Below are positions 5,168-50,094 of a stretch of 64,000 nt of DNA, in pieces (the first letter of the stretch is position 1; every line of letters begins with the position of its first letter). The notes under the pieces were generated by a model. That model saw only the letters and a list, made by a program, of their open reading frames with translations. It had not been told where the DNA came from and searched no databases. A program made the position numbers and the translations under genes. The DNA comes from an uncultured Planctomycetales bacterium (GTDB lineage: Bacteria; Omnitrophota; Gorgyraeia; Zapsychrales; Fredricksoniimonadaceae), in contig CAZNDZ010000001.1 in NCBI GenBank assembly GCA_964572155.1, forward strand, positions 582,518-646,517, given 5' to 3'.

Positions 5168-5594
5168 CGCGCCACAAGCAACACTTGAATTTGGCAAAGC
5201 CTTTGCGAAGAATTTAAAGCCAGGCGATGTTATTTTTTTAAAAGGTGATTTAGGTGCAGGCAAGACGGTATTTACCAAAGGGATTGCTAAAGCTTTGGGC
5301 TTAAACCCCCAGTCAGTCAATAGCCCTACCTTTGTGCTCATGAACTTTTATGAAGGTAAGTTGCCGCTATATCATTTTGATTTATACCGGCTTGAAAATC
5401 CTAATGAATTAAAATCCGTATCCTTTGACGAGTATTTCTATGGCGAAGGGATTAGTATCATTGAATGGCCAGAACGTTTAGGGGCATTTGCGCCAAAAGA
5501 TTTCTGGCTGGTTGAATTAACACATCAAGGAGAGAACAAGCGGCAGATATGTATTTCTTATCCATCGAATCCTCAACGCAAAATTTTGCAATAG
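5142..5594 (+). CDS. tsaE: tRNA t6A37 biosynthesis ATPase TsaE (YjeE)
   Basis: P-loop GDLGAGKT followed by SPTFVLMNFYEG...LYHFDLYRL. Confidence 0.85.
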   Translation: MSKVTHITNAPQATLEFGKAFAKNLKPGDVIFLKGDLGAGKTVFTKGIAKALGLNPQSVNSPTFVLMNFYEGKLPLYHFDLYRLENPNELKSVSFDEYFYGEGISIIEWPERLGAFAPKDFWLVELTHQGENKRQICISYPSNPQRKILQ

Positions 5595-6232
5595 CCTTGA
5601 ATCTTGACGGCAAGGTCTTGCGTCATAAGACGGTAAAGCACGCCAAGCTATTAGAAGATGTGATTCTAAAGAACATTGATGCGCTTTTAAGTCAAGCCAA
5701 GGTTCCATTTTCCAAGATCGATGCCTTTGTCGTTGGACTTGGCCCTGGATCATTTACGAGTTTGCGGGTTGGTTTATCCACGGTTAAGGCATTTTGTTTA
5801 GCCACACAAAAACCTTTGGTTGGGATTTGTTCACTAGATATCATTGCCTATGCTGCGTGTGATGCGTCCAGTGATGACATCTGTGTGATTGTTGATGCAA
5901 GGCGCAATCTAGTATATAGTGCCATTTATCAAAAGACAGCGACGGGTTTAAAGCTAAGAAAAGGTTATACGTTAAGTTCATTTGTAGATGTTGCAGCGAT
6001 GGTTAAGCCTAAAACGTTGTTCGTAGGTGATGCGGTTGGTATTTATGCTAAGGACATCCAAAAGATCAAAGGCATATGTGCACCAGAAAAGATGTGGCTA
6101 CCAACAGCGAAAGTTTTGGCAATGTTAGGTCAAAAGCGCATTGAAGAAAAGGCGTTTGATGATGCAGCGACGGTTGTGCCAATATATTTATATGAAGATG
6201 ATTGTCAGGTTAGTCCAAGTAAGAAAGTGTAA
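5549..6232 (+). CDS. tsaB: tRNA t6A37 biosynthesis protein TsaB (YeaZ)
   Basis: LSIESSTQNFAIAL...GLGPGSFTSLRVGLSTVKAF. The start is uncertain; it overlaps the tsaE end. Confidence 0.8.
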   Translation: MYFLSIESSTQNFAIALNLDGKVLRHKTVKHAKLLEDVILKNIDALLSQAKVPFSKIDAFVVGLGPGSFTSLRVGLSTVKAFCLATQKPLVGICSLDIIAYAACDASSDDICVIVDARRNLVYSAIYQKTATGLKLRKGYTLSSFVDVAAMVKPKTLFVGDAVGIYAKDIQKIKGICAPEKMWLPTAKVLAMLGQKRIEEKAFDDAATVVPIYLYEDDCQVSPSKKV

Positions 6233-6240
6233 GGAGCAGC

Positions 6241-7452
6241 ATGCATTTAACGTGGTGTGAGATTGATTTAAAAGCGTTGACGCACAATTATGCGCAGCTC
6301 GTAAAATTGGCTGCAAAGCATATGACAGGTCGCGCCAAGCCTTTAATCATCACGGTCATCAAAGCCGATGCCTATGGTCATGGTGTGGTTGATGTGGCAC
6401 GTGCGTTGGATGCAGCAGGTGGCACATTCTTTGGTGTGTCGAATGTTGATGAAGGCATGACCTTGCGCCAACATGGCTTTAAGCAAAAGATTTTACTCTT
6501 TGAAAGTACATTACCAACGGATGCTAAAAATATTGTTGCGCACGACCTTACCCCGACGGTGTGTAATAAAGAATTGGCCATTGCTTTAGACAAGGAAGCG
6601 TCTTTGGCAAAGCAAAAGATTGGTGTTCATTTAAAAGTTGATACAGGCATGGGTAGGCTTGGCTTAGATGAAGAAAAGGCGATTGATTTTGTTAAGTTTG
6701 TTCAATCAACTTGCCCTTCTTTGGAATTAGAAGGTATCTATACGCATTTCCCACTCGCTGATTCGGATAAAGATTTTACTTTTGATCAAATGCGACGCTT
6801 TCGAGATATTGTTTTCGCCCTTGAAAATCAATTTATCACATTTCAATACGTGCATGCGGGTAATAGCATGGGCTTAGGGGATTATAAGTCGGAACTATTT
6901 AATTGTGCGCGCCCAGGCATCATGCTGTATGGCTTATATCCGGTTGAATATTTGCAAAAGAAGATTAATTTAAAACCTGTCATGACGGTTAAGTCTAAAA
7001 TCATTTTTATTAAGACGATTGCCAAGGGACAGGGCATTAGTTATGGCCATACGTTTAAAGCCAAACAGGATATGACCATCGCTGTTTTGCCCATTGGGTA
7101 CAGCAACGGGTATTTGCGTTCTTTGTCGAACAAGGCTTTTGTTCTCATTGGTGGCATGCGCTGTCCGTTGATTGGCCGCGTCACCATGGATCAAATCATG
7201 GTGGATATTTCTGTCTTAGGCGATGCCAAAAAATTACCTAAAATCGGGGATGAAGCGGTGCTTATAGGCTTTCAAAAAAATGAATGCATCACCGCAGAAG
7301 ACGTTGCCAAATGGGCGGGTACAATTAGTTATGAAGTTCTGTGTTCTTTAGGAAGCCGCTTACCAAGACACGTGATCAATGTGGTTAAAGCTAAAATTTC
7401 TGCAGTAAACAAAACGGATCTTTACGAAGACTTCTCTAATAAAATGGGGTAA
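6241..7452 (+). CDS. alr: alanine racemase (with a ~30 aa C-terminal extension)
   Basis: PLP-lysine region VIKADAYGHGVVDVARAL and GVSNVDEGMTLRQ. The 3' end overlaps the convergent pilB gene by 31 nt. Confidence 0.85.
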   Translation: MHLTWCEIDLKALTHNYAQLVKLAAKHMTGRAKPLIITVIKADAYGHGVVDVARALDAAGGTFFGVSNVDEGMTLRQHGFKQKILLFESTLPTDAKNIVAHDLTPTVCNKELAIALDKEASLAKQKIGVHLKVDTGMGRLGLDEEKAIDFVKFVQSTCPSLELEGIYTHFPLADSDKDFTFDQMRRFRDIVFALENQFITFQYVHAGNSMGLGDYKSELFNCARPGIMLYGLYPVEYLQKKINLKPVMTVKSKIIFIKTIAKGQGISYGHTFKAKQDMTIAVLPIGYSNGYLRSLSNKAFVLIGGMRCPLIGRVTMDQIMVDISVLGDAKKLPKIGDEAVLIGFQKNECITAEDVAKWAGTISYEVLCSLGSRLPRHVINVVKAKISAVNKTDLYEDFSNKMG

Positions 7453-8786
7453 ATATCGTCGAGGGTGACTAAGCCTGTTTTGACTTTGTTGATGGCATCG
7501 ATCACCATGCTTTGATAGCCTTCTTTAATGGCCAATTGTTCTAAGGTGGTCACAGGGGCTTTGTTGATGATGGCCTCACGCATTTCTTCCGTGATTACGA
7601 CCAATTCAAAAATACCAATACGTCCACGATAACCAGTGCCAGAGCAATGTTCACAGCCAGTGCCTTTATAAAAAGTCATGCTCTCAGTATTTCTTGATTC
7701 GCTAGCACTATAAACTAAGCTCGATGTCTCAGTGGTTGTAGGCTTTGCAGATGCGCTCATAAATAACTTTGGATTAATCCCACATTGGGCGCAAAGTCGT
7801 GTGATGGTGGCAGGGTCAACTTTTTGAGGAACTTTACAACCCTCACAAATTTTACGGACGAGGCGTTGAGCGAGAGATCCAATCAGCGCGTAAGATACGA
7901 CGTGGCTTTCTAATCCCATGTTCATTAATCGCACAACGGTACCAATGGCGCTGTTGGCATGTAAACTGGTGAACACCAAATGCCCTGTGATCGACGCACG
8001 CACAGCAATCTCAGCGCTTTCTGCATCACGGATTTCACCGATCATGATGATGTCAGGGTCTTGACGCAAGATCGATTTAAGTCCTGTTAAGAAATCTTCA
8101 TCGCCTTTACCACGATTTTTTAAGTCACATTGGTTGATGCCGTCAATCTGATATTCGACGGGATCTTCAAGGGTTACGATATTGACAGAGGGATTGTGCA
8201 AGCGTTTTAAAATAGAATAGAGGGTTGTGGTTTTACCGCCACCTGTCGGACCGCTAACGACAATCAAGCCGCTTTTACGCTGGATGATGCGTTCAAGGCG
8301 CAAGCCGTCATTTGGGGTAAGGCCAATCTTTTTTAAATCAACGGTGTCACTGCCTTTGACAATGATACGAATGGCAATCTTATCACCTAAGATGGTTGGG
8401 AATGTCGCCACACGAAAATCGAATTTATTGCCATTAATGTCGGAACTAAAACGACCGTCCCAAGATTTTTTACTGCTGGCGAGATCAGTTGGGATGCCAG
8501 AGAGTAATTTGATGCGTGGCAAAATATTGATATTGGCATTGGTCTCAACTTCTAAGACTTCGTGCAGTTTTCCGTCGATGCGATAGCGGACAATGACCTT
8601 GTCAGGCCGTGGTTCTAAATGCACGTCACTGGCGCGGTTGATGATGGCTTGCTTAAGCAAGAAGGTGACAATCTCGCTCGTTAAGGTTGTGGAATTTGAT
8701 GCCGCAGGTGTTGAACCCCAGACAGATTTCTTACTCTCTGTAAAGGAAGACAATAGCTGAGTGTATTGAGTTTTGATGGAAAGCAT
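7422..8786 (-). CDS. pilB: GspE/PilB-family secretion ATPase (type IV pilus assembly or T2SS)
   Basis: Walker A GPTGGGKTTTLYS, Asp/His boxes, and a C-terminal tetracysteine CEGC...CEHCSGTGYRGRIGIFEL. It lacks a long N-terminal domain (454 aa). Confidence 0.8.
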   Translation of the reverse strand: MLSIKTQYTQLLSSFTESKKSVWGSTPAASNSTTLTSEIVTFLLKQAIINRASDVHLEPRPDKVIVRYRIDGKLHEVLEVETNANINILPRIKLLSGIPTDLASSKKSWDGRFSSDINGNKFDFRVATFPTILGDKIAIRIIVKGSDTVDLKKIGLTPNDGLRLERIIQRKSGLIVVSGPTGGGKTTTLYSILKRLHNPSVNIVTLEDPVEYQIDGINQCDLKNRGKGDEDFLTGLKSILRQDPDIIMIGEIRDAESAEIAVRASITGHLVFTSLHANSAIGTVVRLMNMGLESHVVSYALIGSLAQRLVRKICEGCKVPQKVDPATITRLCAQCGINPKLFMSASAKPTTTETSSLVYSASESRNTESMTFYKGTGCEHCSGTGYRGRIGIFELVVITEEMREAIINKAPVTTLEQLAIKEGYQSMVIDAINKVKTGLVTLDDIYPILLEKSS

Positions 8787-23977: not shown

Positions 23978-24062
23978 TGGTGCCGGAGGAGAGATTTGAA
24001 CTCTCAAGGCTTTCGCCATACGCTTCTGAGACGTACGCGTATACCAATTCCGCCACCCCGGC
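23978..24062 (-). tRNA. tRNA-Leu (anticodon CAG), class II with long variable arm, CCA encoded
   Basis: The reverse complement reads GCCGGGGTGGCGGAATTGGTATACGCGTACGTCTCAGAAGCGTATGGCGAAAGCCTTGAGAGTTCAAATCTCTCCTCCGGCACCA: a 7-bp acceptor stem, anticodon loop CU-CAG-AA, and a T-arm GTTCAAATC. Confidence 0.85.
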
Positions 24063-28029: not shown

Positions 28030-28432
28030 TGGTGGAGGTGCCGGGGATCGAACCCGGGTCCTTGAGTTTCTAAGGAGAGACGTCTACATGCGTAGTCTGT
28101 TTACTGAAATCTCGCTTTAAATCCCCCAACAGACAGGAAGGATGTTAAAGCCAGCTCTATAGGATCTCATCCTAACGTTAAGAGCAGCCATTAGGACCAG
28201 CCTGCTAGTGACAGTTTATCTTAGTAGCAGACATTCTAAGTAAACTGGCTAAGCTACTTGAGCTTAGACGAGGGCAGGAGCTTCGGCACCCTTTAAGATG
28301 CTTTCAGCTTCAGCCACGACGTTGTAGTTGTCGTTTGCGTTTAATTTGTGCCTGGATTGTTAACGGGGCCGACCAAGCATCCCCGGCATGCATTCTAACC
28401 TCGAGCTAAACAAGTCGAGACCAATCACCCCC
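28030..28432 (-). ncRNA. ssrA: tmRNA (SsrA); ends approximate
   Basis: 5' end GGGGGUGAUUGGUCUCGAC; 3' tRNA-like end GACCCGGGUUCGAUCCCCGGCACCUCCACCA. Predicted tag ORF from resume codon GCA: ANDNYNVVAEAESILKGAEAPALV*. Confidence 0.85.
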
Positions 28433-39016: not shown

Positions 39017-40057
39017 TTATGCAAATTTACTTTTATCGATGGCTTTGAGAAAGGCGTTTTCTTTGGTGATTTTGCCTGTTGTGACCAAGGCCATGAGGGA
39101 ATCATCCATGAGTTGCATGCCTGCAGCGCGATTCATTTGAATCTCACTATTTAATTTGTTGGTCTCGCCGGATTGGATGATGTTCGATAACGCAGAAGAG
39201 CGCAATAAGATTTCATATGCCGCATGTCGGCGATTGCCATCCACGCTTGGAATAAGTTGTTGTGCGATGATCGCTTTTAAATTATTAGCTAAAATGGTTC
39301 GGATTTGATTCTTACGGCTCATGGGAAATGCATCCACGATACGGTCAACAGTTTTGGCCGCAGAGTTGGTGTGTAAGGTGCCAAAGACAAGGATGCCCAT
39401 TTCCGATGCGGTGAGGGCTAATTCCATCGTTTCTGCATCACGCATTTCACCGACTAAGATAATATTCGCATCACTCTTAATGGCAGTGCGCAGTCCACTT
39501 GAGAAAGAAACTGTATCTCGCCCAACCTCACGGTGGGTGATCAGACATTTCTTCTTGGGGTGAATGAATTCAACCGGCTCTTCAATGGTGATGATCTTAA
39601 AAGCAAAGTTGGTATTAATATAATCAATCAAGGCGGCCAAGGTGGTTGATTTACCACTTCCCGTCGGACCTGTAACCAAGACAAGGCCAGACTTCCATTT
39701 TGCAAAGTTCTTGATGTGTTGCGGCAAATCCAATTCTTCAATGGTGCGAATTTTTGATGGGATCAAACGAAAAACAGCGCCGATGCCGTAAAAGTGTTTG
39801 AAGTAATTGGCACGCATGCGCGTATCGTTAAATGCATGGGCAAAATCTAAATCTCCAGTTGATAAGAAATTGCGCCATTCATTGGGTTCAGCAATGGGAG
39901 ATAATAATTTAGTTAGGGATTCATTGGTTAAGACAGCGTCGCCAATTTCGATCAATGTGCCTTGCAAACGCATTTTAGGTTTTTGTCCTTCTTCTAAGTG
40001 AAGGTCAGAACCTTTGCGTTCGATTAAGATATTAAATAATGCATCAATTTCGGCCAT
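39017..40057 (-). CDS. pilT: type IV pilus retraction ATPase, PilT family
   Basis: Walker A GLVLVTGPTGSGKSTTLAA plus Asp and His boxes; PilT-length. Confidence 0.85.
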   Translation of the reverse strand: MAEIDALFNILIERKGSDLHLEEGQKPKMRLQGTLIEIGDAVLTNESLTKLLSPIAEPNEWRNFLSTGDLDFAHAFNDTRMRANYFKHFYGIGAVFRLIPSKIRTIEELDLPQHIKNFAKWKSGLVLVTGPTGSGKSTTLAALIDYINTNFAFKIITIEEPVEFIHPKKKCLITHREVGRDTVSFSSGLRTAIKSDANIILVGEMRDAETMELALTASEMGILVFGTLHTNSAAKTVDRIVDAFPMSRKNQIRTILANNLKAIIAQQLIPSVDGNRRHAAYEILLRSSALSNIIQSGETNKLNSEIQMNRAAGMQLMDDSLMALVTTGKITKENAFLKAIDKSKFA

Positions 40058-40058
40058 T

Positions 40059-41168
40059 TTAAGTTTTTCCTAACATGGTCATCATCATGGCTGGGTTTGT
40101 CGCACGATCGAGGGCATCAGTGTTTGAAATGAGCCCGCCGTTGGCCATGGTTTGTAATGAGCTGTCCATCAATTGCATGCCAAAAGATCGCCCTGTGGTC
40201 ATGACATTATTTAATTGAGATATTTTGCCTTCACGGATGGAGCTGGCAACAGGTTGATTGACAATCAAGACTTCGAATGCCGGAACCATGCCGCTGCCAT
40301 CTTTTTTAGGGATGAGCTGTTGGCAAATAACGCCGCGTAATGATTCAGAGAGCATGTTGCGCATAATGCCTTGTTCGTCGGCCGGAAAAGAGTCGATTAA
40401 TTTTGAAATGGTTTGCATGGCATTGACCGTGTTCATTGTACCAAACACAAGATGTCCTGTTTCCGCCGCTGAGATAGCTAATTGAATTGTTTTAAGGTCG
40501 CGCAATTCGGAAATGATCAAGATGTCGGGATCTTCGCGCAATGCCGCACGCAAGGCATTGTTTTGAGACATGGTGTGGCTGCCAACTTCACGTTGGGTGA
40601 TCTGACATTTATTTGGTTTAAACACAATTTCAATCGGGGATTCGATGGTGATGATATGTTCTGCACGATGACCATTAACAATTTCAACAAGCGAGGACAA
40701 TGTCGTGGTTTTACCGCAACCTGCAGGACCCGTCACTAGAACTAACCCTTGAGCCCATTTGGTTAAATTGATGCAAGCGTCCGATAAGCCAATTTCTTTA
40801 GGTGTTGGGATTTTAACTGGGATCAAGCGCACGGTTAATTCCCAACCATCACGCTGTTTCATTAAAGACATACGAAAACGGCCATTGCCAGGGATGGTGT
40901 GCACATATTCCGCATCTCCAGTGGCATCAAATACTTTAACAATATCGAGTGGCAATGCAGTGCGGATTAAATCTTCTGCTTTTTTTGCCGTCAATATTTC
41001 TTGAGACAGGGTGAGCAGTTGATTTAATTTTCTAAAGATCAACGGATTATTCGCAGAAAGATGCACGTCGGAGGCGCCTTGTTGCCGCGCCAGAATAAGG
41101 ATCATATTAAGGTCAGATGGGATCGCACTCATGGAAGTGATTATAAAAATGAAATGATCAATAAACAA
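40059..41168 (-). CDS. PilT/PilU-family ATPase (second paralog; start uncertain, possibly internal Met at 41132)
   Basis: Walker A GLVLVTGPAGCGKTTTLSS. In tandem with pilT. Confidence 0.75.
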   Translation of the reverse strand: MFIDHFIFIITSMSAIPSDLNMILILARQQGASDVHLSANNPLIFRKLNQLLTLSQEILTAKKAEDLIRTALPLDIVKVFDATGDAEYVHTIPGNGRFRMSLMKQRDGWELTVRLIPVKIPTPKEIGLSDACINLTKWAQGLVLVTGPAGCGKTTTLSSLVEIVNGHRAEHIITIESPIEIVFKPNKCQITQREVGSHTMSQNNALRAALREDPDILIISELRDLKTIQLAISAAETGHLVFGTMNTVNAMQTISKLIDSFPADEQGIMRNMLSESLRGVICQQLIPKKDGSGMVPAFEVLIVNQPVASSIREGKISQLNNVMTTGRSFGMQLMDSSLQTMANGGLISNTDALDRATNPAMMMTMLGKT

Positions 41169-41233
41169 GACAATAATACATTTTGATTGCAGGGTATATT
41201 TTTGTTAAAGTGAACACCAATTAAACTTAAGGA

Positions 41234-42034
41234 GTGTATATGAAACAAATTTTATTATCTATTGTGTTGGTGTTCGGTTTTTCAAATATTGCTGCTGCGG
41301 CGCTTGTGACGGAAGAAATCAGTTATTCTGAAGGGTCGACGGCGTTAAAGGGATATTTAGCCTATGATGATGCCTCAACAGAAAAACGCCCAGGCATTCT
41401 GGTGGTACATGAATGGTGGGGGCATAATGATTATGCTCGCAAACGCGCGCGCATGTTAGCCCAATTAGGTTATGTGGCTTTTGCCGTTGATATGTACGGT
41501 GATGGTAAGCATGCAGATCATCCCGATCAAGCGGCCGCGTTTATGAAAGCGGTGGCAGAAAATACACAAATATCACAATCCCGTTTTCATGCGGCCTATG
41601 AGGTTTTAAAGAATTTTAGTTTAACAGATATTACTCGCATTGGCGCGATTGGATATTGTTTTGGCGGCGCCACAGTTTTAAAAGAAGCCATGGCAGGAAC
41701 ACCGCTTAAAGGTGTTGTGAGTTTTCACGGCTCATACGGATTGCCAGAGACTTTGCTTAAGCCAAATAGCATTAGATCAAAGATTTTAGTTTGCCACGGT
41801 GCAGATGATCAATTTGCCACCGCAGAGCAAATTGAGACATTTAAAAAAGCACTGGATGGGGCCAATGCCCAATACACGTTTAATGTGTATGCTGGTGCAA
41901 AGCATGGGTTTACAAACCCAGAAGCTGATACTTATGCCAAAAATTTTGGCATGCCGTTAGCCTATAATAAAGCTGCTGATCAGCAAAGTTGGGCTGATAT
42001 GAAAGCTTTCTTTGCTAAATTGTTTCAAAATTGA
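41234..42034 (+). CDS. dienelactone hydrolase-family alpha/beta hydrolase (secreted)
   Basis: Signal peptide, ILVVHEWWG, and the nucleophile elbow IGYCFGG. Confidence 0.75.
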   Translation: MYMKQILLSIVLVFGFSNIAAAALVTEEISYSEGSTALKGYLAYDDASTEKRPGILVVHEWWGHNDYARKRARMLAQLGYVAFAVDMYGDGKHADHPDQAAAFMKAVAENTQISQSRFHAAYEVLKNFSLTDITRIGAIGYCFGGATVLKEAMAGTPLKGVVSFHGSYGLPETLLKPNSIRSKILVCHGADDQFATAEQIETFKKALDGANAQYTFNVYAGAKHGFTNPEADTYAKNFGMPLAYNKAADQQSWADMKAFFAKLFQN

Positions 42035-42111
42035 AGTTTTTTAATTGAAAAAAATAAAGATATGCTACAATAACACAAAATTTAACGCTTTTATTTAGAT
42101 GGAGGTCGATC

Positions 42112-42573
42112 GTGTTTATTCGTTTATTCTTCGCTGTTGTATTCTTATCTGTCATTTCTGGTTGCGCCACAACCCAACAAAAAGGCGCCAATGATCAATT
42201 GCAAACTCGTGTGATTGAATTAGAGAAAAAATTAGACGAGAAAGATTCTGAAATCGTTGATTTGCAATATGAAGTCAAAGATCTTCATAGCAAGGTTGCG
42301 AATAACAAAACAATGGTCATGCCAACAGAAGATGTTACAACTGCAATAACCTCCGCTGATAAAGCTGACGGTAAAGTGATCAAGGTGGATGTCAGTGCCA
42401 CCAAAGTACAAACTGCACTGAAAAATGCTGGTTACTACACTGGCAAAGTTGATGGCAAAGCAGGCGCAGGCACCAAGGCCGCGATTGCTGCATTCCAAAA
42501 AGCTAAAGGTCTTAACTCCGACGGTGTTGTTGGGCGTAAGACATGGGACGCTTTAAAAGAATACCTTAAATAA
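42112..42573 (+). CDS. lipoprotein with C-terminal peptidoglycan-binding domain (PG_binding_1)
   Basis: GTG start, lipobox VISGCAT, a coiled-coil, and TALKNAGYYTGKVDGKAGAGTKAAIAAFQKAKGLNSDGVVGRKTWDAL. Confidence 0.7.
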   Translation: MFIRLFFAVVFLSVISGCATTQQKGANDQLQTRVIELEKKLDEKDSEIVDLQYEVKDLHSKVANNKTMVMPTEDVTTAITSADKADGKVIKVDVSATKVQTALKNAGYYTGKVDGKAGAGTKAAIAAFQKAKGLNSDGVVGRKTWDALKEYLK

Positions 42574-42575
42574 TT

Positions 42576-43628
42576 GTGATTGATCTAAATACCATTGGTG
42601 AAGAACAGCTGTTGCAAACGAGGCTGTGTGATTTGCCTATTGCCATCGAAGGCACATGGCTTGAAGCGTGTGTGTTGCAATTGCATGCGGAATTAAAGAC
42701 ACAAGGGATCTCATTTTTACCGTCGTGTTATTTAGCCGATGAATGGTTAACCCCCGAGGGTGAAGTTGTCATTGGTATTCCCTTTTACCTCGCCCATCCC
42801 ACATTGATCAAACTAGAACATAAGATGATGTTAGAAGCCGAAGGTGAAGGCAAGACATGGTGCATGCAATTATTGCGCCATGAAACAGGCCATGCACTGA
42901 CGTATGCCTATAAGTTAAATGAGCGCAAAGATTGGCAACGTGTGTTTGGTTCACCGGCGCAAGAATACGGGGATACCTATAAGTTTAAACCCTATAGCAA
43001 GAATTTTGTCAGGCACTTGGATGGTTTTTATGCACAGTATCATCCCGACGAGGATTTCGTGGAAACATTTGCTGTCTGGTTAACCCCAGATTCTAATTGG
43101 AGAGAAACATATCAGGCCCAAGGCGCGCTTGAGAAGTTAGAGTTTGTGGATCAATTGATGGCCTCCATTAAAGACAAGCCACCGTTAAAGAAAACAGGTC
43201 GGAAATTGTGGAGCCAAGCCAAGAGTAAAATGCTCTTAAGTAAATATTATAGTAAGAAACAATCAAGCCGAGAAGATTTGATTGATTTTCATGATGCACA
43301 ACTCAATAAGATTTTTAAATCCTTGTCGCCGGAAGAATGGATTGCTTTTAAGAAGGAGCAACGCAAGAATAAGAATTTATTGCCAGCGTTTACTTTGGTT
43401 CAAGCGCATACGAAAAATTTGATGAATAGTGTTGACCGTTGCACCGGAGAGCGTAAATATATCATCAGTGGATTATTAAAAAATATCGCGCTGCGCACAC
43501 GTCAATTGAATATGATTGTGCAGGGCGATGAGAAGGTAGCACTTGTGCAATTATCCGTCTATGTGACAAGCCTTGTTGCCAACTATGTGCATACGGGTTT
43601 ATATCGAGGAAAAGGGCATCGATCATGA
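42576..43628 (+). CDS. HExxH-motif putative zinc metalloprotein (uncharacterised family)
   Basis: LLRHETGHALTYAY (HExxH) with a downstream acidic region. The stop overlaps the next gene's start (ATGA). Confidence 0.5.
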   Translation: MIDLNTIGEEQLLQTRLCDLPIAIEGTWLEACVLQLHAELKTQGISFLPSCYLADEWLTPEGEVVIGIPFYLAHPTLIKLEHKMMLEAEGEGKTWCMQLLRHETGHALTYAYKLNERKDWQRVFGSPAQEYGDTYKFKPYSKNFVRHLDGFYAQYHPDEDFVETFAVWLTPDSNWRETYQAQGALEKLEFVDQLMASIKDKPPLKKTGRKLWSQAKSKMLLSKYYSKKQSSREDLIDFHDAQLNKIFKSLSPEEWIAFKKEQRKNKNLLPAFTLVQAHTKNLMNSVDRCTGERKYIISGLLKNIALRTRQLNMIVQGDEKVALVQLSVYVTSLVANYVHTGLYRGKGHRS

Positions 43629-44653
43629 AAAAGAAATTAAATGTGCTGATGTTGTTTTACAGCCCATATCAAAAGCCGCGCGGCTACGATTACAAAGAAG
43701 AGTTTGCTGATCCAGATAATATGTACACGGAAAAAGATGTCATGCTCGCCTTAAAAAGCTTGGGGCATGAGGTGCGGCTGCTTGGGATCTTTAATGACAT
43801 TGCACCCCTTTTTGAAGAAATCAAAGAGAATAAGCCTGACGTCATTTTTAATATGATGGAGATTTTTAATAATCAAACGCATCTAGAGAAGAATACGGCG
43901 GCCATCCTTGAGATGCTAGATATTCCTTTTACCGGTTCGGGATCTGGGGTGTTGTTCTTATGTAATAATAAGGCGCTAAGTAAGAAGATATTCTCATATC
44001 ATAAAGTTAAGGTCTCAAAATTCACGACGTACTATAAGGGCAAGCGCATTGTTGTCCCTAAGAAATTACGTTTACCGGCGGTGATTAAGCCATTGTGTGA
44101 AGAAGCATCGCGCGGTATTTCGCAAGCATCGATTGTCGACAGTGTTCAAGGTTTCATTGATCGCATCAAATTTATCCATGACAATTTGCAGCTGGATGCG
44201 ATTGCCGAAGAATACATTGAAGGCCGTGAGTTTTATGTGAGCGTTTTAGGTCATAAGCAAATCACGGTGTTGCCTGCCCGTGAAATGCTCTTTACCAATA
44301 TGCCTGAAGGTGAACCACGCATTGCGACGTATAAAGCTAAATGGGATGATGCCTATCGTAAGAAATGGGGCATCAAGAGTGTGGCTGCGGCCAAGATTTC
44401 CGACGAGTTACAAGCTAAGATGGCGGATGTTTGCAAGAAGGCATATCGTGCCATGGACATGGACAGCTATGTGCGTTTTGATATTCGGGTGGACGCCAAT
44501 GATGAGGTCTATATCATTGAGCCTAATGCTAATCCCTGCATTGCCAAGATGGATGAGATTGCCCAATCAGCGATTAAGGCAGGCATGTCTTATGAAGATT
44601 TAATACAAAAGGTGTTGGAATTGGCCATCTTGCGCCATGAAAATAGAAAGTAG
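43625..44653 (+). CDS. ATP-grasp ligase, D-alanine--D-alanine ligase-like
   Basis: Ddl-family N-terminus (ILEMLDIPFTGSGSGVLFLCNNKALSKK) and an ATP-grasp C-terminus (EEYIEGREFYVSVLG...RFDIRVDANDEVYIIEPNANP). Confidence 0.7.
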   Translation: MKKKLNVLMLFYSPYQKPRGYDYKEEFADPDNMYTEKDVMLALKSLGHEVRLLGIFNDIAPLFEEIKENKPDVIFNMMEIFNNQTHLEKNTAAILEMLDIPFTGSGSGVLFLCNNKALSKKIFSYHKVKVSKFTTYYKGKRIVVPKKLRLPAVIKPLCEEASRGISQASIVDSVQGFIDRIKFIHDNLQLDAIAEEYIEGREFYVSVLGHKQITVLPAREMLFTNMPEGEPRIATYKAKWDDAYRKKWGIKSVAAAKISDELQAKMADVCKKAYRAMDMDSYVRFDIRVDANDEVYIIEPNANPCIAKMDEIAQSAIKAGMSYEDLIQKVLELAILRHENRK

Positions 44654-44659
44654 CGTGTC

Positions 44660-45433
44660 ATGCAGTTATCAAAATCGTTGGTCGTTTTAGATTTAGAAAC
44701 AACAGGGACGTGGATTGAGAAAGATCGCATCATTGAAATTGCCTTGATCAAATTAAATCCTGATGGAACAGAGCAAACATTTGAAAGCAAGGTTAATCCC
44801 TGCATGCCCATCCCACCAGTGGTTAGTGAATTAACCGGCATCAAAGATGAAGATGTTAAAAATGCACCGGTGTTTACCATGATTGCTTCTAAAATCGTTG
44901 AGTTTATCGGTGATGCAGATCTAGCAGGGTTTAACGCTGAGCGGTTTGATATTCCTTTATTGAATCGTGAATTTAGCGACGTAGGGGTTAAGTTTGACAT
45001 GAGCGGACGTATGATCTTTGATGCTCAAAAAGTGTATCACTTGCATCAAAAACGCGATTTGTCAGCAGCCTATTTGTTCTATTGTAAAAAAGATTTAAAA
45101 GATGCCCATTCTGCCCTTGCAGATACACGCGCGACATTAGATATTTTAGAAGAACAAATCAATTTATATGGCAATGGTAACAAGCACATTGACGCGTTAA
45201 AAGATTTTAACTACCGTCAGACCAGCGAGTATTTTGACAGTGACCGTAAGTTTCGTTGGTGGAATGGTGAGCTTTATATGACCTTTGGCAAGTATGCCAA
45301 GAAGGAATCCCTTCGCGTGATAGCCCAGAAAGATCCTAACTATCTGCAGTGGATCTTAGACAAAGACTTCAGTGAAGAAATAAAAGCCATGGTCCAAGAT
45401 GTGATTAATGGCCAACATCCCAAACAGGCTTAA
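44660..45433 (+). CDS. DEDDh 3'-5' exonuclease domain protein (DnaQ-like) with ~85-aa C-terminal extension
   Basis: Exo I LVVLDLETTG, Exo II, and Exo III HSALADTRATLDIL. Confidence 0.75.
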   Translation: MQLSKSLVVLDLETTGTWIEKDRIIEIALIKLNPDGTEQTFESKVNPCMPIPPVVSELTGIKDEDVKNAPVFTMIASKIVEFIGDADLAGFNAERFDIPLLNREFSDVGVKFDMSGRMIFDAQKVYHLHQKRDLSAAYLFYCKKDLKDAHSALADTRATLDILEEQINLYGNGNKHIDALKDFNYRQTSEYFDSDRKFRWWNGELYMTFGKYAKKESLRVIAQKDPNYLQWILDKDFSEEIKAMVQDVINGQHPKQA

Positions 45434-45470
45434 ATTTGCGCTTATATAGATTATATGGTACATTTGCCGC

Positions 45471-47357
45471 ATGTTCCAAAAGCACATCTGTTTAATCATT
45501 AGCCTATGTTTATTGCCCTTGCCACAAGTACATGCAAATGAAATGGTTTTGCCTGTGCCGGGCAAGATGGTTCAATTAAGCGCTGCCTACCAGCCCGCGA
45601 TCCTCAAAGGCTTGACCGTTCATAAAGATAATCCTTTCATGTTCGACTTTTTAGTCGATGTAGGCCAAGACAAGTTACAAGGTGAGGCGTTAAAGCAAGA
45701 AGGCGATAAGTTCATTCAATATTTTCTAGCAACATTGGCTGTTCCTGAAAAAGATCTTTGGGTTAACTTAAGTCCTTATGAAAAAAACCGCACGGTGCCA
45801 CAAGCCTTAGGCCAAACAGCCTTGGGGTCTGACCTTTTAGCTCAAGACTATATTTTAAAGCAATTAACCGCAAGTTTGATTTATCCCGAAAAAGAATTGG
45901 GTAAAAAATTCTGGGACAACGTCTATCAAAAGACACAAGCCAAGTATGGCAAAGTCAATATCCCAGTGAATACCTTTAACAAAGTTTGGATCATGGCGGA
46001 CAAAGCCGAAGTGTACGAACACAATCAAACCGCCTTTGTAACGGACACCCATTTAAAAGTCATGTTAGAAGAAGATTACCTAGCCGCAAACAAAAACACC
46101 GTAGAGACGCGATTCATCGCGTCTCAAACATCAAATAAAACAACCCAAAACATCATCAAAGCAAGCGAAGCTTCCCTGTTGTCCAACAAAGTGTTGCAGG
46201 AAATCATCCTTCCTGAAATCGAGCACGAGATCAACACTGGAAAAAACTTTGCCACCCTAAGACAGATTTTTAATGCCATCATTTTAGCGACGTGGTACAA
46301 AAACAATTTAAAGCAATCGCTATTAAATGACGTCTATTCCAATCAAAACAAAGTCAAAGGCATCGACCTACAAGATCAAACCATCAACCAAGAAATTTAC
46401 GAGCGCTATGTGCAAGCTTATAAAAAAGGCGTGTTTAATTACGTTAAAGACGGTGCACAGCCTAAGAAATATTTCTCCGGCGGTGTTGTCGGCCGCGTGC
46501 CATTGACAACAATCAATAAAGCGATGGCGTCACAAAAGGCAATTGATGATCCTGTTCATCAAATTGTATCATTTAAAGTAAGGTTAAATGATGCCGCCAT
46601 GACAACAAGTGAGGCCATAGTAGAACTCATGGACATGTTGGTTAGTAATGATGTTGTTGATGATCAGATTATGGATGATATTGCGGTATATCTCATACGG
46701 CTGTATCGATCACATAAAGATAAATTAGAGATATTATTCCCTCAATTAATAGTGCATCCAAATTATAAGCATTTAAAGAACAAGATACAGGCCCTTTATG
46801 TTGCAACGGGTTATCCCACAAATGAGATGGGAAAAATATCAAAGGCATTGGTGGATTTTAATTGCTGGCATTATTGTTGGAATAATCTCTTAAGCTTAGA
46901 AAGGCAGAGGAAATTTTTCTATAATAAGGCAATGGCAAGCACAGTAAAAGGTAAGGGATTGTTAAAGATTTTAAGCGCTGGTGTTGGTATGGCGGTGGCA
47001 AGTTATTTTATTCCCGAAGATGGTCACAAGTTTTTATTCTTATATGCCGGTCTAGGGGTTACGGCGTCAGGCTGGTTGCTTTGGCATGCTTTAAATGCGC
47101 CTAAAGCAGATGAAGCGGCCAATGATTCTCGCTTCAATCAAGATCAGGCCATGAATGGTGGTATTGATTTTAAGGATAGTGCTCTTAAAACAAAATTACG
47201 TAAAGATGGATTGGGTGTGAGTTTTGCGGTGGATTCTGAGTTTATAGAAAGGGTCAAACGTGATGGTCTCGAGGGGTTAACGCCGGTTATTGTGCACATT
47301 GAGCCGGTGATCAATATTGCACCTCTGTTGGGTCTTCCTGTTAAAAACAAATCTTGA
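45471..47357 (+). CDS. secreted/membrane protein (P2), shorter paralog of the 14479-18558 protein
   Basis: Sec signal MFQKHICLIISLCLLPLPQVHA|NE. N- and C-terminal domains are collinear with P1 (WVNLSPYEK...DLLAQDYILKQ.TASLIYPE; IPVNTFNKVWI; QAM..GGIDF). Has a C-proximal bilobed hydrophobic hairpin (LLKILSAGVGMAVASYFI-PEDGHK-FLFLYAGLGVTASGWLLW). Confidence 0.6.
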   Translation: MFQKHICLIISLCLLPLPQVHANEMVLPVPGKMVQLSAAYQPAILKGLTVHKDNPFMFDFLVDVGQDKLQGEALKQEGDKFIQYFLATLAVPEKDLWVNLSPYEKNRTVPQALGQTALGSDLLAQDYILKQLTASLIYPEKELGKKFWDNVYQKTQAKYGKVNIPVNTFNKVWIMADKAEVYEHNQTAFVTDTHLKVMLEEDYLAANKNTVETRFIASQTSNKTTQNIIKASEASLLSNKVLQEIILPEIEHEINTGKNFATLRQIFNAIILATWYKNNLKQSLLNDVYSNQNKVKGIDLQDQTINQEIYERYVQAYKKGVFNYVKDGAQPKKYFSGGVVGRVPLTTINKAMASQKAIDDPVHQIVSFKVRLNDAAMTTSEAIVELMDMLVSNDVVDDQIMDDIAVYLIRLYRSHKDKLEILFPQLIVHPNYKHLKNKIQALYVATGYPTNEMGKISKALVDFNCWHYCWNNLLSLERQRKFFYNKAMASTVKGKGLLKILSAGVGMAVASYFIPEDGHKFLFLYAGLGVTASGWLLWHALNAPKADEAANDSRFNQDQAMNGGIDFKDSALKTKLRKDGLGVSFAVDSEFIERVKRDGLEGLTPVIVHIEPVINIAPLLGLPVKNKS

Positions 47358-47415
47358 GATTTATTAGCAGAACGTATAGAATAACTCCCATTATATCAAT
47401 GGCTTAGGGAGGAAT

Positions 47416-47835
47416 TTGTTCATGAAAAATTTATGGATCGTTTTAGTGTGTATCGCAGCAGGCGTTGTTTTGTTTTCGTTAACCGTCAATAAATCAAAGC
47501 CCAATGAACCTGTTGCCATGATGGCTCAACCTGAGGTTGTTAAACAAGATCCAGTAACATCTCCGTCGATCGTCACAAGTCCAGAAGATGGCAAAGAAGC
47601 AGGTTTTACTATCCAAGTTTATTCATTTCGCGAAGCTGATCGTGCCGCAAGAGCTTTAGCAAATCTTAAAGCTGTAGGGTATAAAGCATTTCAAGAAGTC
47701 AGTGACTTAGGAGACAAAGGCACGTTTTATCGTGTGCGTATTGGTGGTTTAAAAGATGAAGCAGAAGCACAAAAAGTGTTGGAAGATATTCGTAAAAATT
47801 ATGAAGGTGGATTTATCGTAAAACCAAAAAAATAA
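47416..47835 (+). CDS. SPOR domain (septal peptidoglycan-binding) protein
   Basis: N-terminal TM anchor and a C-terminal SPOR domain (FTIQVYSFREADRAARALANLKAVGYKAF...GTFYRVRIGGL). Confidence 0.8.
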   Translation: MFMKNLWIVLVCIAAGVVLFSLTVNKSKPNEPVAMMAQPEVVKQDPVTSPSIVTSPEDGKEAGFTIQVYSFREADRAARALANLKAVGYKAFQEVSDLGDKGTFYRVRIGGLKDEAEAQKVLEDIRKNYEGGFIVKPKK

Positions 47836-47843
47836 GGATCCCT

Positions 47844-48440
47844 ATGAAGAATTTCTTCTTGTTGTGTTTGATCATGGTTGTATCGTTTGCAGGTTGTGCT
47901 ACAAAAGTAACCCGCACGGATGTAAATGCTGTGACGGACTTTAGCGGTTCTTGGAATGATACCGATGCCCGTTTAACGGCAGAAGCCATGATTGCAGATT
48001 GCCTCAATGGTGTTTGGATCAATGAGTTTAACAAAGAAAAAGGTCGTACACCAACGGTGATCATAGGCAAGATTAAAAACAGGACTTACGAACATATCCG
48101 CAGTGATATTTTTACCAATGTCATGGAACGCGCATTAACCAATTCCGGTAAAGTAACATTCGTGGCAGATAAAGAAAATCGTGAAGAAATTCGTGAAGAA
48201 CGTGCAGATCAGCTAGAAGGTAATACTGAACCATCGACCATATCCGAAAAAGGTCATGAGACAGGTGCTGATTTCATGATGCAAGGTTCCATCGAAGCCA
48301 TCAAGGATGCGGTCAAGGGCAAGTACGCCATGTATTATCAAATCACCCTCGAGATGGTTGATATGAAGACCAACCAAAAACGCTGGATTAGTCAGAAAGA
48401 AATCAAAAAGATCGTCGAACGTCCACAAGTGAAGATGTAA
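47844..48440 (+). CDS. lipoprotein, LpoB-like / TolB-N-like fold candidate
   Basis: Lipobox SFAGCAT, then a ~170-aa domain. Family assignment is tentative. Confidence 0.35.
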   Translation: MKNFFLLCLIMVVSFAGCATKVTRTDVNAVTDFSGSWNDTDARLTAEAMIADCLNGVWINEFNKEKGRTPTVIIGKIKNRTYEHIRSDIFTNVMERALTNSGKVTFVADKENREEIREERADQLEGNTEPSTISEKGHETGADFMMQGSIEAIKDAVKGKYAMYYQITLEMVDMKTNQKRWISQKEIKKIVERPQVKM

Positions 48441-48445
48441 AACAC

Positions 48446-49666
48446 GTGCGATATTTTTTTCTAGTTTTCTTTATGTTAAGCGCAGTTTCCTGCGCGTCTG
48501 CATCCAAGAACATCCAACCCCAGATCAATAGTCTGGTCGCCGCCAATCGTTTAGATAAAGCATTGACCTTGATGGGCAATGATCCGTCCATTTATGGCCC
48601 ACATAACCATCTATTGTTTTGGTTAGACAAAGGCATGATCGCGCATTTAAATAAGAAAACTCAAGAAAGCATTGATGCTTTCGAACAAGCCGAAAAATTA
48701 AATGAAGTCCTTTATACAAAATCCTTGAGTCAAATGGCCAATACGTGGATTGTGAATAATGCGAAAGAAGATTATCGTGGCGACGAGCAAGAATATGTGA
48801 TGGTCAATGTCTTTCAAGCGTTTAATTTTGCTGCTATCGATAATATTGATGAGGCCTTGGTCGAGGCAAGGCGTTTGGATTCAAAGTTAAAGACGATTGG
48901 CACAAGATATCAAAACCCTTTTGCATATTTTTTAAGTGGTTTGTTGTGGCATGTGTCCAAAGAGCCTAATGCCAATGAAGATGCGGCCATTGATTTTCAA
49001 AAAGCTTTGGGATTATATGAAAATCCACCTCAGATCTTAAAAGATTTATTACAAGAAACGAAATCTCTACGCAATAACAGTAAAGCCCGCATTTATGTTG
49101 TTGAATATACAGGTTATATTCCAATCAAAGTCGCTGATGCCTTTCCACTTCCATTAGACGGGGGTCATTTGACTAAGTTTAGTTTTCCGCGTTATCAAGA
49201 CCGTTATAGCGAGGTGAAGTCATCACGTTTTAAAATACGTCATGGTGGTATAGCCGATGTGCAGGAATCGCAAGTTGTTTGTGATTTAGGGGCTTTGGCT
49301 AAGAAGATTTTGGATGCCAAAAAAGCGTCGATCAATGCCAAGGCGGTTATTAGGCCATTATTAAAGTATGGCGCACAGAAGGCTGCAGAAATTCCCGTGC
49401 GAGATAAAGGCGGGGATTTAGCTGGGGATTTGATGGGTGTTGCTGGTAGTATTTATAATCTTGCAAGCGAAGAAGCGGATGTACGCACATGGCAAACTCT
49501 ACCCAATCAAATTAGACTAGCGGTCTTTGATGTCGACGCCGGTACGTATGACATTGAAGTCGATGATTTAGATGCAGATGGCTCAACGATCAGTCATAGA
49601 GTGGTTTCAACCGTGACAGTTAAACATGGTGACAATAAATTCATTATCAGTCGTAGTTGGCTATAA
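48446..49666 (+). CDS. lipoprotein with N-terminal TPR-like helical region, unknown function
   Basis: Lipobox AVSCAS, a helical N-terminal half, and a beta-rich C-terminal half. Confidence 0.4.
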   Translation: MRYFFLVFFMLSAVSCASASKNIQPQINSLVAANRLDKALTLMGNDPSIYGPHNHLLFWLDKGMIAHLNKKTQESIDAFEQAEKLNEVLYTKSLSQMANTWIVNNAKEDYRGDEQEYVMVNVFQAFNFAAIDNIDEALVEARRLDSKLKTIGTRYQNPFAYFLSGLLWHVSKEPNANEDAAIDFQKALGLYENPPQILKDLLQETKSLRNNSKARIYVVEYTGYIPIKVADAFPLPLDGGHLTKFSFPRYQDRYSEVKSSRFKIRHGGIADVQESQVVCDLGALAKKILDAKKASINAKAVIRPLLKYGAQKAAEIPVRDKGGDLAGDLMGVAGSIYNLASEEADVRTWQTLPNQIRLAVFDVDAGTYDIEVDDLDADGSTISHRVVSTVTVKHGDNKFIISRSWL

Positions 49667-49716
49667 CCCAAAAAACCATTGCGACGCATTGGGATTTCCT
49701 ATAGAATGAAGAACTT

Positions 49717-50094
49717 ATGAAGATACTCATTGTTGATGATTCCATGATGGACCGCAAATTAATGTCGCGCATCTTACAAAAAAGCGAGATTACCCAAGAG
49801 ATCGTCGAGGTTGAAGATGGGGAAAAAGCGTTGGAAGTTTTAGCTGAGCATTATTCCGAAATTTGCGTCGTCCTCTTAGATTGGCAAATGCCAAAGATGT
49901 CTGGCATCGAAGTATTAACTGCAGTTGCTAAAGTTCCTCTCATTGCTTCTGTGCCAATTATCATGGTGACAGCCTCTGGTTCTGAAGAGAACAAGAAGAT
50001 GGCACGGGATGCAAATCCAAATTTGGCAGGTTATTTGGTTAAGCCATACAAAGCAGATGATTTGATAGCCGCTATCAAACCTTTTTTAAAGTAA
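49717..50094 (+). CDS. single-domain response regulator (CheY-like receiver)
   Basis: ILIVDDSMMDRKL...VLLDWQMPKMSGIEVL...GYLVKP. The phospho-acceptor Asp context is present. Confidence 0.85.
   Translation: MKILIVDDSMMDRKLMSRILQKSEITQEIVEVEDGEKALEVLAEHYSEICVVLLDWQMPKMSGIEVLTAVAKVPLIASVPIIMVTASGSEENKKMARDANPNLAGYLVKPYKADDLIAAIKPFLK

Follow-up and report, generated by a model that had tools for sequence, protein, structure and literature searches.

The D-alanine–D-alanine ligases (Ddl), exemplified by E. coli DdlB, P. aeruginosa DdlA (8EVX) and Y. pestis Ddl (4ZQI), possess a three-domain ATP-grasp fold furnished with residues for ATP binding, Mg binding and phosphoryl transfer, and presumably recognize D-Ala through an E15-S150-Y216 triad, H63 and the S281/L282 pair (DdlB numbering, used for all Ddl positions below). 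Further, ATP-grasp amidoligases operate in conjunction with peptidases, as stand-alone modules, in the VanA/VanX, glutathionylspermidine synthetase/amidase, RimK and TTL/cytosolic carboxypeptidase systems. The same logic of amidoligase plus peptidase is suggested by the locus considered here, which lies in a stretch of 64,000 nucleotides (nt) of contig CAZNDZ010000001.1 (hereafter the window) and comprises a gene for a protein with an HExxH motif followed by one for a Ddl-like ATP-grasp ligase. The initial annotation of this DNA had proposed that the two genes, a DEDDh exonuclease gene behind them and possibly the next gene, P2, form an unusual three-part system. Comparison of gene neighbourhoods across genomes points instead to a two-gene module of HExxH protein and ATP-grasp ligase, and not to the trio, as the functional unit. 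The instance in the window is a typical copy of this widespread, uncharacterised module, and of the proposed three-part system there is no sign.

The predicted peptidase of the pair is not homologous to any of the peptidases in the above-mentioned systems, namely VanX (M15), the CHAP amidase and the M14 carboxypeptidases. Instead, it shares the core motif HExxH ... (Y)..P.ED(F/I)AE..A with the Peptidase_Mx and Peptidase_Mx1 families (PF15887, PF15890) and with the substrate import-associated (SusCD-associated) zinc metallohydrolase lipoproteins of Bacteroidota (TIGR04549; 4L7A, 9URD). Unlike these lipoproteins, the HExxH protein is apparently cytoplasmic, no signal peptide being seen by eye in either protein of the pair, and unlike Peptidase_Mx/Mx1 it has a conserved N-terminal region of its own and a 140-residue C-terminal helical domain. 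A further likeness is to the gluzincins of the anthrax lethal factor/MtfA type (MEROPS M34/M90), in which the HExxH motif is followed by a tyrosine and by a glutamate within an E-x-F-x-E-x-F helix; however, there is no sequence-level match to these proteins, the flanking domains differ and the fold match is not significant.

The HExxH and ATP-grasp genes form a conserved pair

A profile scan for the HExxH family, with one genome retained per species, gave 80 loci, 77 of which are informative in that they include downstream DNA. Open reading frames (ORFs) were called in all loci and searched with the window proteins, and phyla were taken from the record titles. In 72 of the 77 informative loci, spread over at least 14 phyla, an ATP-grasp orthologue lies directly downstream of the HExxH gene on the same strand. 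The carriers comprise Omnitrophota, Planctomycetota, Verrucomicrobiota, Acidobacteriota, Myxococcota, Bdellovibrionota, Nitrospirota, Gemmatimonadota, Methylomirabilota, Alpha- and Gammaproteobacteria, Spirochaetota, Auribacterota, Lentisphaerota and Dormibacterota. The junction between the two genes is mostly one that would couple their translation: among the 53 loci in which it is measurable, 24 have an exact 4-nt overlap and 46 a gap of no more than 20 nt. Three additional loci from metagenomes, with identities of 72%, 60% and 55%, also show the pair, and its identity across phyla is ~40%. The view of the initial annotation that these two genes are a linked module is thereby borne out.

Clustering of all flanking ORFs of at least 70 amino acids (aa) in 80-83 loci revealed no third family that is common to the loci beyond lineage synteny. 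The pair also differs from graspetide and other ATP-grasp systems for peptides made by ribosomes and modified after translation: no precursor gene stands by the ligase, the gaps in the window being 2, −4 and 6 nt, and the same set of loci holds no conserved flanking ORF of at least 70 aa that could encode a precursor, ORFs below 70 aa outside the window not being covered. Of seven family members that are long or extended at the N-terminus, none is a fusion of HExxH and ATP-grasp domains, and tblastn against plasmids and phages gave no homologue of the HExxH protein.

The PDB, the literature and database names yielded neither a solved structure of the HExxH partner nor any member of the pair that has been characterised, with a 2009 survey of amidoligase contexts lying outside the literature covered. 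This survey, by Iyer et al., reportedly dealt with contexts combining ATP-grasp enzymes and peptidases. One candidate publication, PMC4000134, was set aside as it concerns an unrelated M28-like protein.

The ATP-grasp ligase retains catalytic residues but not those for D-Ala

By sequence, the ATP-grasp protein matches Ddl with an E-value of 5e-16 at ~25% identity, the range against Ddl being ~20-25%, and the Pfam Dala_Dala_lig_C domain is recognized with 86.9 bits. Nevertheless, it falls far under the NCBIfam cut-offs for Ddl, with 120.6 bits against 243 for the best and broadest model, PRK01372, and 97.6 against 245.65 for TIGR01205. A search of the PDB by Foldseek with its AlphaFold2 (AF2) model, of predicted local distance difference test (pLDDT) score 83, gave an E-value of 1.5e-23 and a template modelling (TM) score of ~0.75; the top 50 matches are all Ddl, and the three-domain ATP-grasp fold of these enzymes is present.

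Alignment of 70 orthologues to E. coli DdlB allows the substrate-binding positions to be mapped. The residues K97, K144, S151, E180, E187, K215, R255, D257, E270 and N272 are invariant, the last two corresponding to E299 and N301 of the window ligase, i.e., the residues predicted to serve nucleotide binding, Mg binding and phosphoryl transfer are all kept. The positions associated with D-Ala in Ddl show a different pattern: that of E15 is variable (E, K or A), as is that of H63, S150 is replaced by Ala in 45 of the 70 and Y216 by Trp in 66, and Y210 has likewise become Ala. At S281 and L282, which are D310 and E311 in the window ligase, the orthologues have E/D in 68/70 and D/E in 70/70, respectively, an acidic pair at a site that in Ddl binds the carboxylate of D-Ala2, just as E15 binds the ammonium of D-Ala1. 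Additionally, an N-terminal loop absent from Ddl (residues ~14-36), conserved but of low model confidence, replaces the short D-Ala1 loop. Since the catalytic residues are kept while those for D-Ala are replaced, the protein is predicted to be an active ligase with a substrate pair different from that of Ddl. Thus, the possibility that it is a divergent amidoligase and not a canonical Ddl was upheld by the residues as well as by the scores, and on both grounds it is unlikely to be the sole Ddl of the genome. In contextual terms, too, it differs from Ddl in being located outside a dcw/mur cluster and paired with the HExxH gene.

In NCBI records the homologues of the ligase are named 'ATP-grasp domain-containing protein' or 'hypothetical protein', and in JGI data the orthologues go by 'D-alanine-D-alanine ligase'. 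Published surveys describe dcw/ddl genes as conserved in Omnitrophota, and calls based on KEGG Orthology (KO) could include this paralogue. Because of the JGI labels, it may make up part of what KO-based reports count as ddl in Omnitrophota and other uncultured phyla.

The HExxH protein as a predicted zincin

Over residues 100-170, the HExxH protein matches the Pfam family Peptidase_Mx (PF15887) with 30.4 bits, the cut-off being 27, and seven further family members of atypical length likewise show a partial match to this profile. There are weak matches also to TIGR04549 and Peptidase_Mx1. On sequence, it is placed as a divergent and distinct subfamily of the Peptidase_Mx type. This subfamily is large, with >7500 homologues in a word-indexed search and 1822 clusters at 50% identity in an exhaustive one.

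Inspection of 47 diverse members, down to 32% identity, shows R101, H102, E103, H106, Y152, P157, D160 and E163 to be invariant and H156 and E159 to be at least 90% conserved, giving a family motif of the form HExGH ... YAQxHPDEDFxETFA. The spacing of 7 residues from the tyrosine to the glutamate equals that between Y728 and E735 in anthrax lethal factor, and the E-x-F-x-E-x-F helix resembles that of lethal factor and MtfA. Hence, judging from its motifs, the protein keeps the complete motif set of the lethal factor/MtfA type. Its catalytic core extends over residues ~90-200 and is followed by the helical domain (~200-340, ~140 residues), which has no recognisable relative; the mean pLDDT of the AF2 model is 80. 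Searches of the PDB, both with the single sequence and with a profile, returned nothing significant, although in the profile search the same motif aligns weakly to 4L7A (...YAGSKPSEDIAEVTACFLT) and 9URD (E-values of 0.36 and 1.8). The named homologues come from metagenome-assembled genomes (MAGs) of Candidatus Omnitrophota, and cluster look-ups for cultured carriers yielded MAG proteins only.

The exonuclease and P2 as lineage-specific neighbours

The third gene encodes a protein with an RNase_T domain (80.3 bits against a cut-off of 24) and the DEDDh motifs LDLETTG, FNAERFD and HSALAD. It resembles exodeoxyribonuclease X and other DnaQ-like stand-alone DEDDh exonucleases in these motifs and in an ExoX-like C-terminal region, but lies below the equivalog cut-offs of all NCBIfam epsilon and ExoX models (best, PRK06309, 78.3 against 245) and has no partner domains. 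These features indicate a predicted 3'-5' exonuclease of the ExoX/epsilon-like DEDDh type. The extra C-terminal domain that had been singled out as unusual does exist as a region; however, it corresponds to a sub-threshold ExoX-like_C match (23.3 bits against 26.5), a known feature of ExoX-type proteins.

In this genome the exonuclease gene is probably co-transcribed with the pair. Nevertheless, it was found near the pair only in one clade of Omnitrophota, namely in L001/L002, L003, L007 and L008 by tblastn and in L087 and L088/L089 from gene tables, where the HExxH proteins share ~59-90% identity. No exonuclease is present near the pair in eight other Omnitrophota-titled loci with ~5 kb of downstream DNA (L012, L014, L017, L019-L022) or in any other phylum. 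Thus, when the neighbourhood of the presumed trio is examined, the pair recurs and the exonuclease does not. Even within the clade, a gene of 390-396 aa with Transglut_core2/YccV-like domains stands between ligase and exonuclease in L003, L087 and a JGI 3300071358 contig, so that the two are not adjacent there, and gaps of ~60-190 nt further separate them. Moreover, the synteny of the clade extends over ~20 kb and takes in DLH, PG_binding, HExxH, ATP-grasp, exonuclease, SPOR, LpoB and TPR genes, two response regulators, PEPCK and a resistance-nodulation-division pump. As the entire block is equally syntenic, the adjacency of the exonuclease is best explained by relatedness. Its tight spacing is likewise uninformative: the window is ~95% coding, 33 of its 47 same-strand neighbour pairs are separated by no more than 10 nt and 16 pairs overlap, i.e., close gene packing is the norm in this genome. 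These observations speak against the exonuclease as a member of the system.

The window lacks the intervening Transglut_core2/YccV-like gene (~395 aa; L003 8174-9361, L087 5705-6877). As amidoligases often have transglutaminase-like peptidases as partners, this gene could belong to the module as an optional component.

P2 is, as had been noted from the beginning, a paralogue of the product of another gene in the window, with 44% identity over ~390 aa. The idea of a functional linkage between P2 and the upstream genes finds no support in the comparison: in L001, L007 and L008 the exonuclease gene is followed directly by the SPOR gene, with no P2 between them, and P2 occurs at the same position only in L088/L089, where the ATP-grasp protein is identical to that of the window. 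These data point to P2 as an insertion between the exonuclease and SPOR genes that is restricted to this genome. The P family comprises large proteins with no Pfam match, which have in common the above-mentioned N-terminal ~390 aa and the last ~70 aa; by eye, the N-terminus of P2 resembles a signal peptide. In L001/L002 a homologue of ~1250 aa is encoded upstream of the DLH gene (L001 204-3977), and copies occupy differing positions among related genomes.

Among the loci of the survey, L008 (CAZCHB010000021.1), L011 and L015 derive from MAGs labelled Planctomycetales or Planctomycetia. L008 has an HExxH gene of 73% identity along with full synteny of the Omnitrophota type (exonuclease, SPOR, LpoB, TPR), and L015 carries an upstream gene specific to the clade (see below); the labels of all three are probably wrong.

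Proposed function of the pair and competing explanations

Taken together, the comparisons lend a modest degree of confidence to a reading in which the pair comprises a cytoplasmic amide-forming ligase and a zincin that hydrolyses the bond, while the exonuclease and P2 are bystanders; that these two are bystanders is, taken by itself, far more secure than the reading as a whole. At the expense of ATP, the ligase would turn a carboxylate into an acyl-phosphate, which would then be joined to an amine to give an amide, i.e., a peptide or isopeptide bond. Because the E15 position, assigned to the D-Ala1 ammonium in Ddl, is not conserved, the donor of the carboxylate is probably N-blocked, for example the C-terminus of a peptide or protein, or a side chain. 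The incoming amine would probably be positively charged at the position where Ddl accommodates the D-Ala2 carboxylate, a cationic acceptor being suggested by the invariant acidic pair at the S281/L282 site. The co-translated zincin would hydrolyse bonds of the same class for purposes of trimming, reversal or recycling, and the substrate would be either encoded elsewhere or a metabolite. As for the exonuclease, it would here be a general ExoX-like DNA exonuclease in a co-directional array of housekeeping genes.

Several observations weigh against this reading. Five of the 77 informative loci (L040, L050, L059, L069, L085) lack a ligase beside the HExxH gene. The identities of the two proteins correlate across loci merely as phylogeny would have it, with a Spearman coefficient of 0.02 in the distant subset and, by this crude test, no signal of co-evolution. 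The assignment of the HExxH protein as a peptidase rests on motifs, and its placement in a family by profile succeeded in part: the PF15887 match is above threshold, but it is marginal and covers profile positions 90-165 of 236 only (~75 residues). The top Foldseek match of its model is anthrax lethal factor, which is not significant (E-values of 0.27-0.6, TM score of at most 0.25), and its named homologues all come from MAGs, under the names 'hypothetical' or 'putative zinc-binding metallopeptidase'. With regard to the ligase, the substrate proposals depend on a DdlB reference sequence entered by hand, although it agrees with a computed 4ZQI alignment, and on residue roles taken from the Ddl literature. 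Finally, the start of the exonuclease gene overlaps the ligase stop by 4 nt in L001 and L007, as compared with the 6-nt spacer of the window, and there may be a functional tie between exonuclease and pair that is specific to the clade.

By analogy with RimK or with the cycle of TTL and carboxypeptidases, the pair might act in a hitherto undescribed form of reversible protein tagging across many phyla, with a positively charged amino acid or amine added to a carboxylate, at the C-terminus or in a side chain, of a conserved cytoplasmic protein and removed again by the zincin. Such a tagging system, which we consider rather unlikely, would be a bacterial counterpart of those cycles and, in the one Omnitrophota clade, might have been recruited beside genes for envelope and DNA maintenance. 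A role in the metabolism of peptidoglycan peptides is suggested by the fact that the closest characterised relatives of the ligase, in sequence and in structure, are Ddl enzymes, that the pair in this clade is flanked by a PG_binding_1 lipoprotein and by SPOR and LpoB, and that every phylum carrying the pair is wall-containing. The ligase would then make or extend a stem-peptide component (such as a dipeptide other than the usual one or a further amino acid) and the zincin would cleave stem peptides or the normal dipeptide, in the manner of VanA/VanX or of muropeptide recycling by Mpl/LdcA. This possibility is rendered improbable by the loss of the D-Ala-binding residues and the acidic nature of the D-Ala2 carboxylate site. 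In addition, the peptidoglycan-related neighbours are unconserved outside the one Omnitrophota clade, and in none of the phyla surveyed does the pair have a linked Mur ligase, transporter or amidase; moreover, PG_binding, SPOR and LpoB are envelope proteins, whereas the pair has no evident signal peptide by eye.

A small molecule or peptide natural product is an equally doubtful candidate for the substrate. Ddl-fold ATP-grasp enzymes include several ligases for L-amino acids and metabolites, both enzymes of the pair look catalytically intact in their sequences and no protein substrate is encoded beside them; hence, the ligase might assemble a dipeptide, an oligopeptide or a conjugate of an amino acid, for example as an osmolyte, a storage compound or a pro-drug, that the zincin matures or degrades, comparable to the L-amino-acid ligases of the tabtoxin or bacilysin type that work with peptidases. 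Nevertheless, the surroundings of the pair in the 80 loci show no conserved transporter, tailoring enzyme, regulator or precursor gene, the gaps between the genes in the window leave no space for a precursor ORF, and the pair is chromosomal, vertically conserved and absent from plasmids, unlike typical secondary-metabolite clusters. By far the least credible of the explanations is that of the initial annotation, a three-gene system, with or without P2, directed at nucleic acids or nucleotides, anti-phage defence being one example. The genes are indeed co-directional and tightly spaced in the window, the ligase and exonuclease genes overlap in two loci, the trio is kept in its clade down to ~59% HExxH identity, and the exonuclease matches DEDDh-containing models of PADLOC at the domain level. 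However, these models are generic, PADLOC has no matches for the HExxH protein, the ATP-grasp ligase or P2, and homologues on plasmids or phages are lacking. Together with the absence of the exonuclease beside the pair elsewhere, the intervening gene in some members of the clade, the equal synteny of a block that includes PEPCK and response regulators, the packing typical of the genome and the missing P2 in relatives, this largely refutes the three-gene explanation; defence in particular was rejected on the PADLOC, plasmid, phage and housekeeping-context evidence.

The trio as originally flagged therefore matters little, amounting to lineage synteny in a compact genome. The two-gene module of predicted ligase and zincin is worth keeping in view, as its HExxH family runs to ~1800 clusters at 50% identity in many phyla. 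It is a well-defined target, the ligase of which is prone to mis-annotation as Ddl. Identification of its substrate would give a function to thousands of genes now called 'hypothetical' and would also correct KO-based ddl counts in peptidoglycan surveys of uncultured phyla.

Layout and surroundings of the locus

The genes and motifs of the locus are collected in Table 1 with the other features of the window. The gene boundaries given in the initial annotation are exact in the sequence, and its domain calls (HExxH, Ddl-like ATP-grasp, DEDDh exonuclease) agree with Pfam and NCBIfam. At the first junction, read in the sequence, the stop of the HExxH gene and the ATG of the ATP-grasp gene overlap as ATGA (43625-43628); the TAG of the latter is separated from the exonuclease ATG by the 6 nt cgtgtc, and the exonuclease TAA from the P2 ATG (45471) by 37 nt. 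The co-directional run begins before 42576, since the PG_binding_1 lipoprotein gene stops 2 nt ahead of the HExxH GTG. A scan for promoters and terminators gave signals at chance level only, and Rfam has no match in 40000-50000.

Table 1. Coordinates of the module, its neighbours and other features of the window
Feature	Position	Strand	Remarks
HExxH gene (core gene 1)	42576..43628	+	ORF, 350 aa, GTG start
HETGH motif, residues 102-106	42879..42893	+	H102 and H106, predicted zinc ligands; E103, predicted general base
YAQYHPDEDFVETFAVW motif	43029..43079	+	Y152, predicted catalytic Tyr; E159 or E163, predicted third zinc ligand Glu
ATP-grasp ligase gene (core gene 2)	43625..44653	+	ORF, 342 aa
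EPNANPCIAKMDE segment of ligase	44519..44557	+	E299 and N301, predicted Mg ligands as in Ddl; D310 and E311, acidic pair in place of S281/L282
DEDDh exonuclease gene (neighbour, not core)	44660..45433	+	ORF, 257 aa
PG_binding_1 lipoprotein gene (neighbour, not core)	42112..42573	+	153 aa, Pfam
P2 gene (outside unit)	45471..47357	+	628 aa, no Pfam domain
Paralogue of P2	14479-18558		
SPOR, LpoB-like and TPR genes	47416-49666		Tightly spaced trio
PilT-like and PilB-like T2SSE ATPase genes	39017-41168 and 7422-8786	-	Two tandem PilT-like copies and a third, larger PilB-like paralogue
tmRNA gene	28030-28432	-	
tRNA-Leu(CAG) gene	23978-24062	-	
Antisense ORF	44590-45000	-	136 aa, over the ligase/exonuclease junction; probably spurious

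The local neighbourhood is envelope-related, as the PG_binding_1 gene lies upstream and genes with the Pfam domains SPOR and LpoB lie downstream of P2. The claim that the locus is not in a cell-wall context accordingly stands only in part: no mur genes are present among the 57 large window ORFs scanned against Pfam, and tblastn with DdlB found no second ddl in the whole window, but the immediate neighbours are PG_binding_1, SPOR and LpoB. The PG_binding_1 lipoprotein gene is located upstream of the pair also in L088 and, at a distance of one to three additional genes, in L001, L003 and L087; no such gene turned up beside the pair in other phyla. Downstream, the SPOR-domain protein, the LpoB-like activator of penicillin-binding proteins and a TPR protein of 406 aa are kept as a trio in L003, L007, L008, L087 and L088 of the Omnitrophota clade.

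A protein of ~205 aa with no Pfam match is encoded directly upstream of the HExxH gene in four loci (L001 5393-6004, L003 5340-5978, L015 ~5390-5990 and, in part, L007 138-290), with a 4-nt overlap with the HExxH gene in L001. It is absent from the entire 64-kb window and may be a clade-specific accessory gene that was lost here.

Beyond these neighbours, the window is ordinary chromosomal DNA, with holB, metG, alr, LptF/G, the pyruvate dehydrogenase complex, glycogen phosphorylase, PEPCK, a CusBA-like pump and three T2SSE ATPases. The two PilT-like versions among the latter are 37% identical to each other. The tmRNA of the window has a long tag of 24 residues (ANDNYNVVAEAESILKGAEAPALV).

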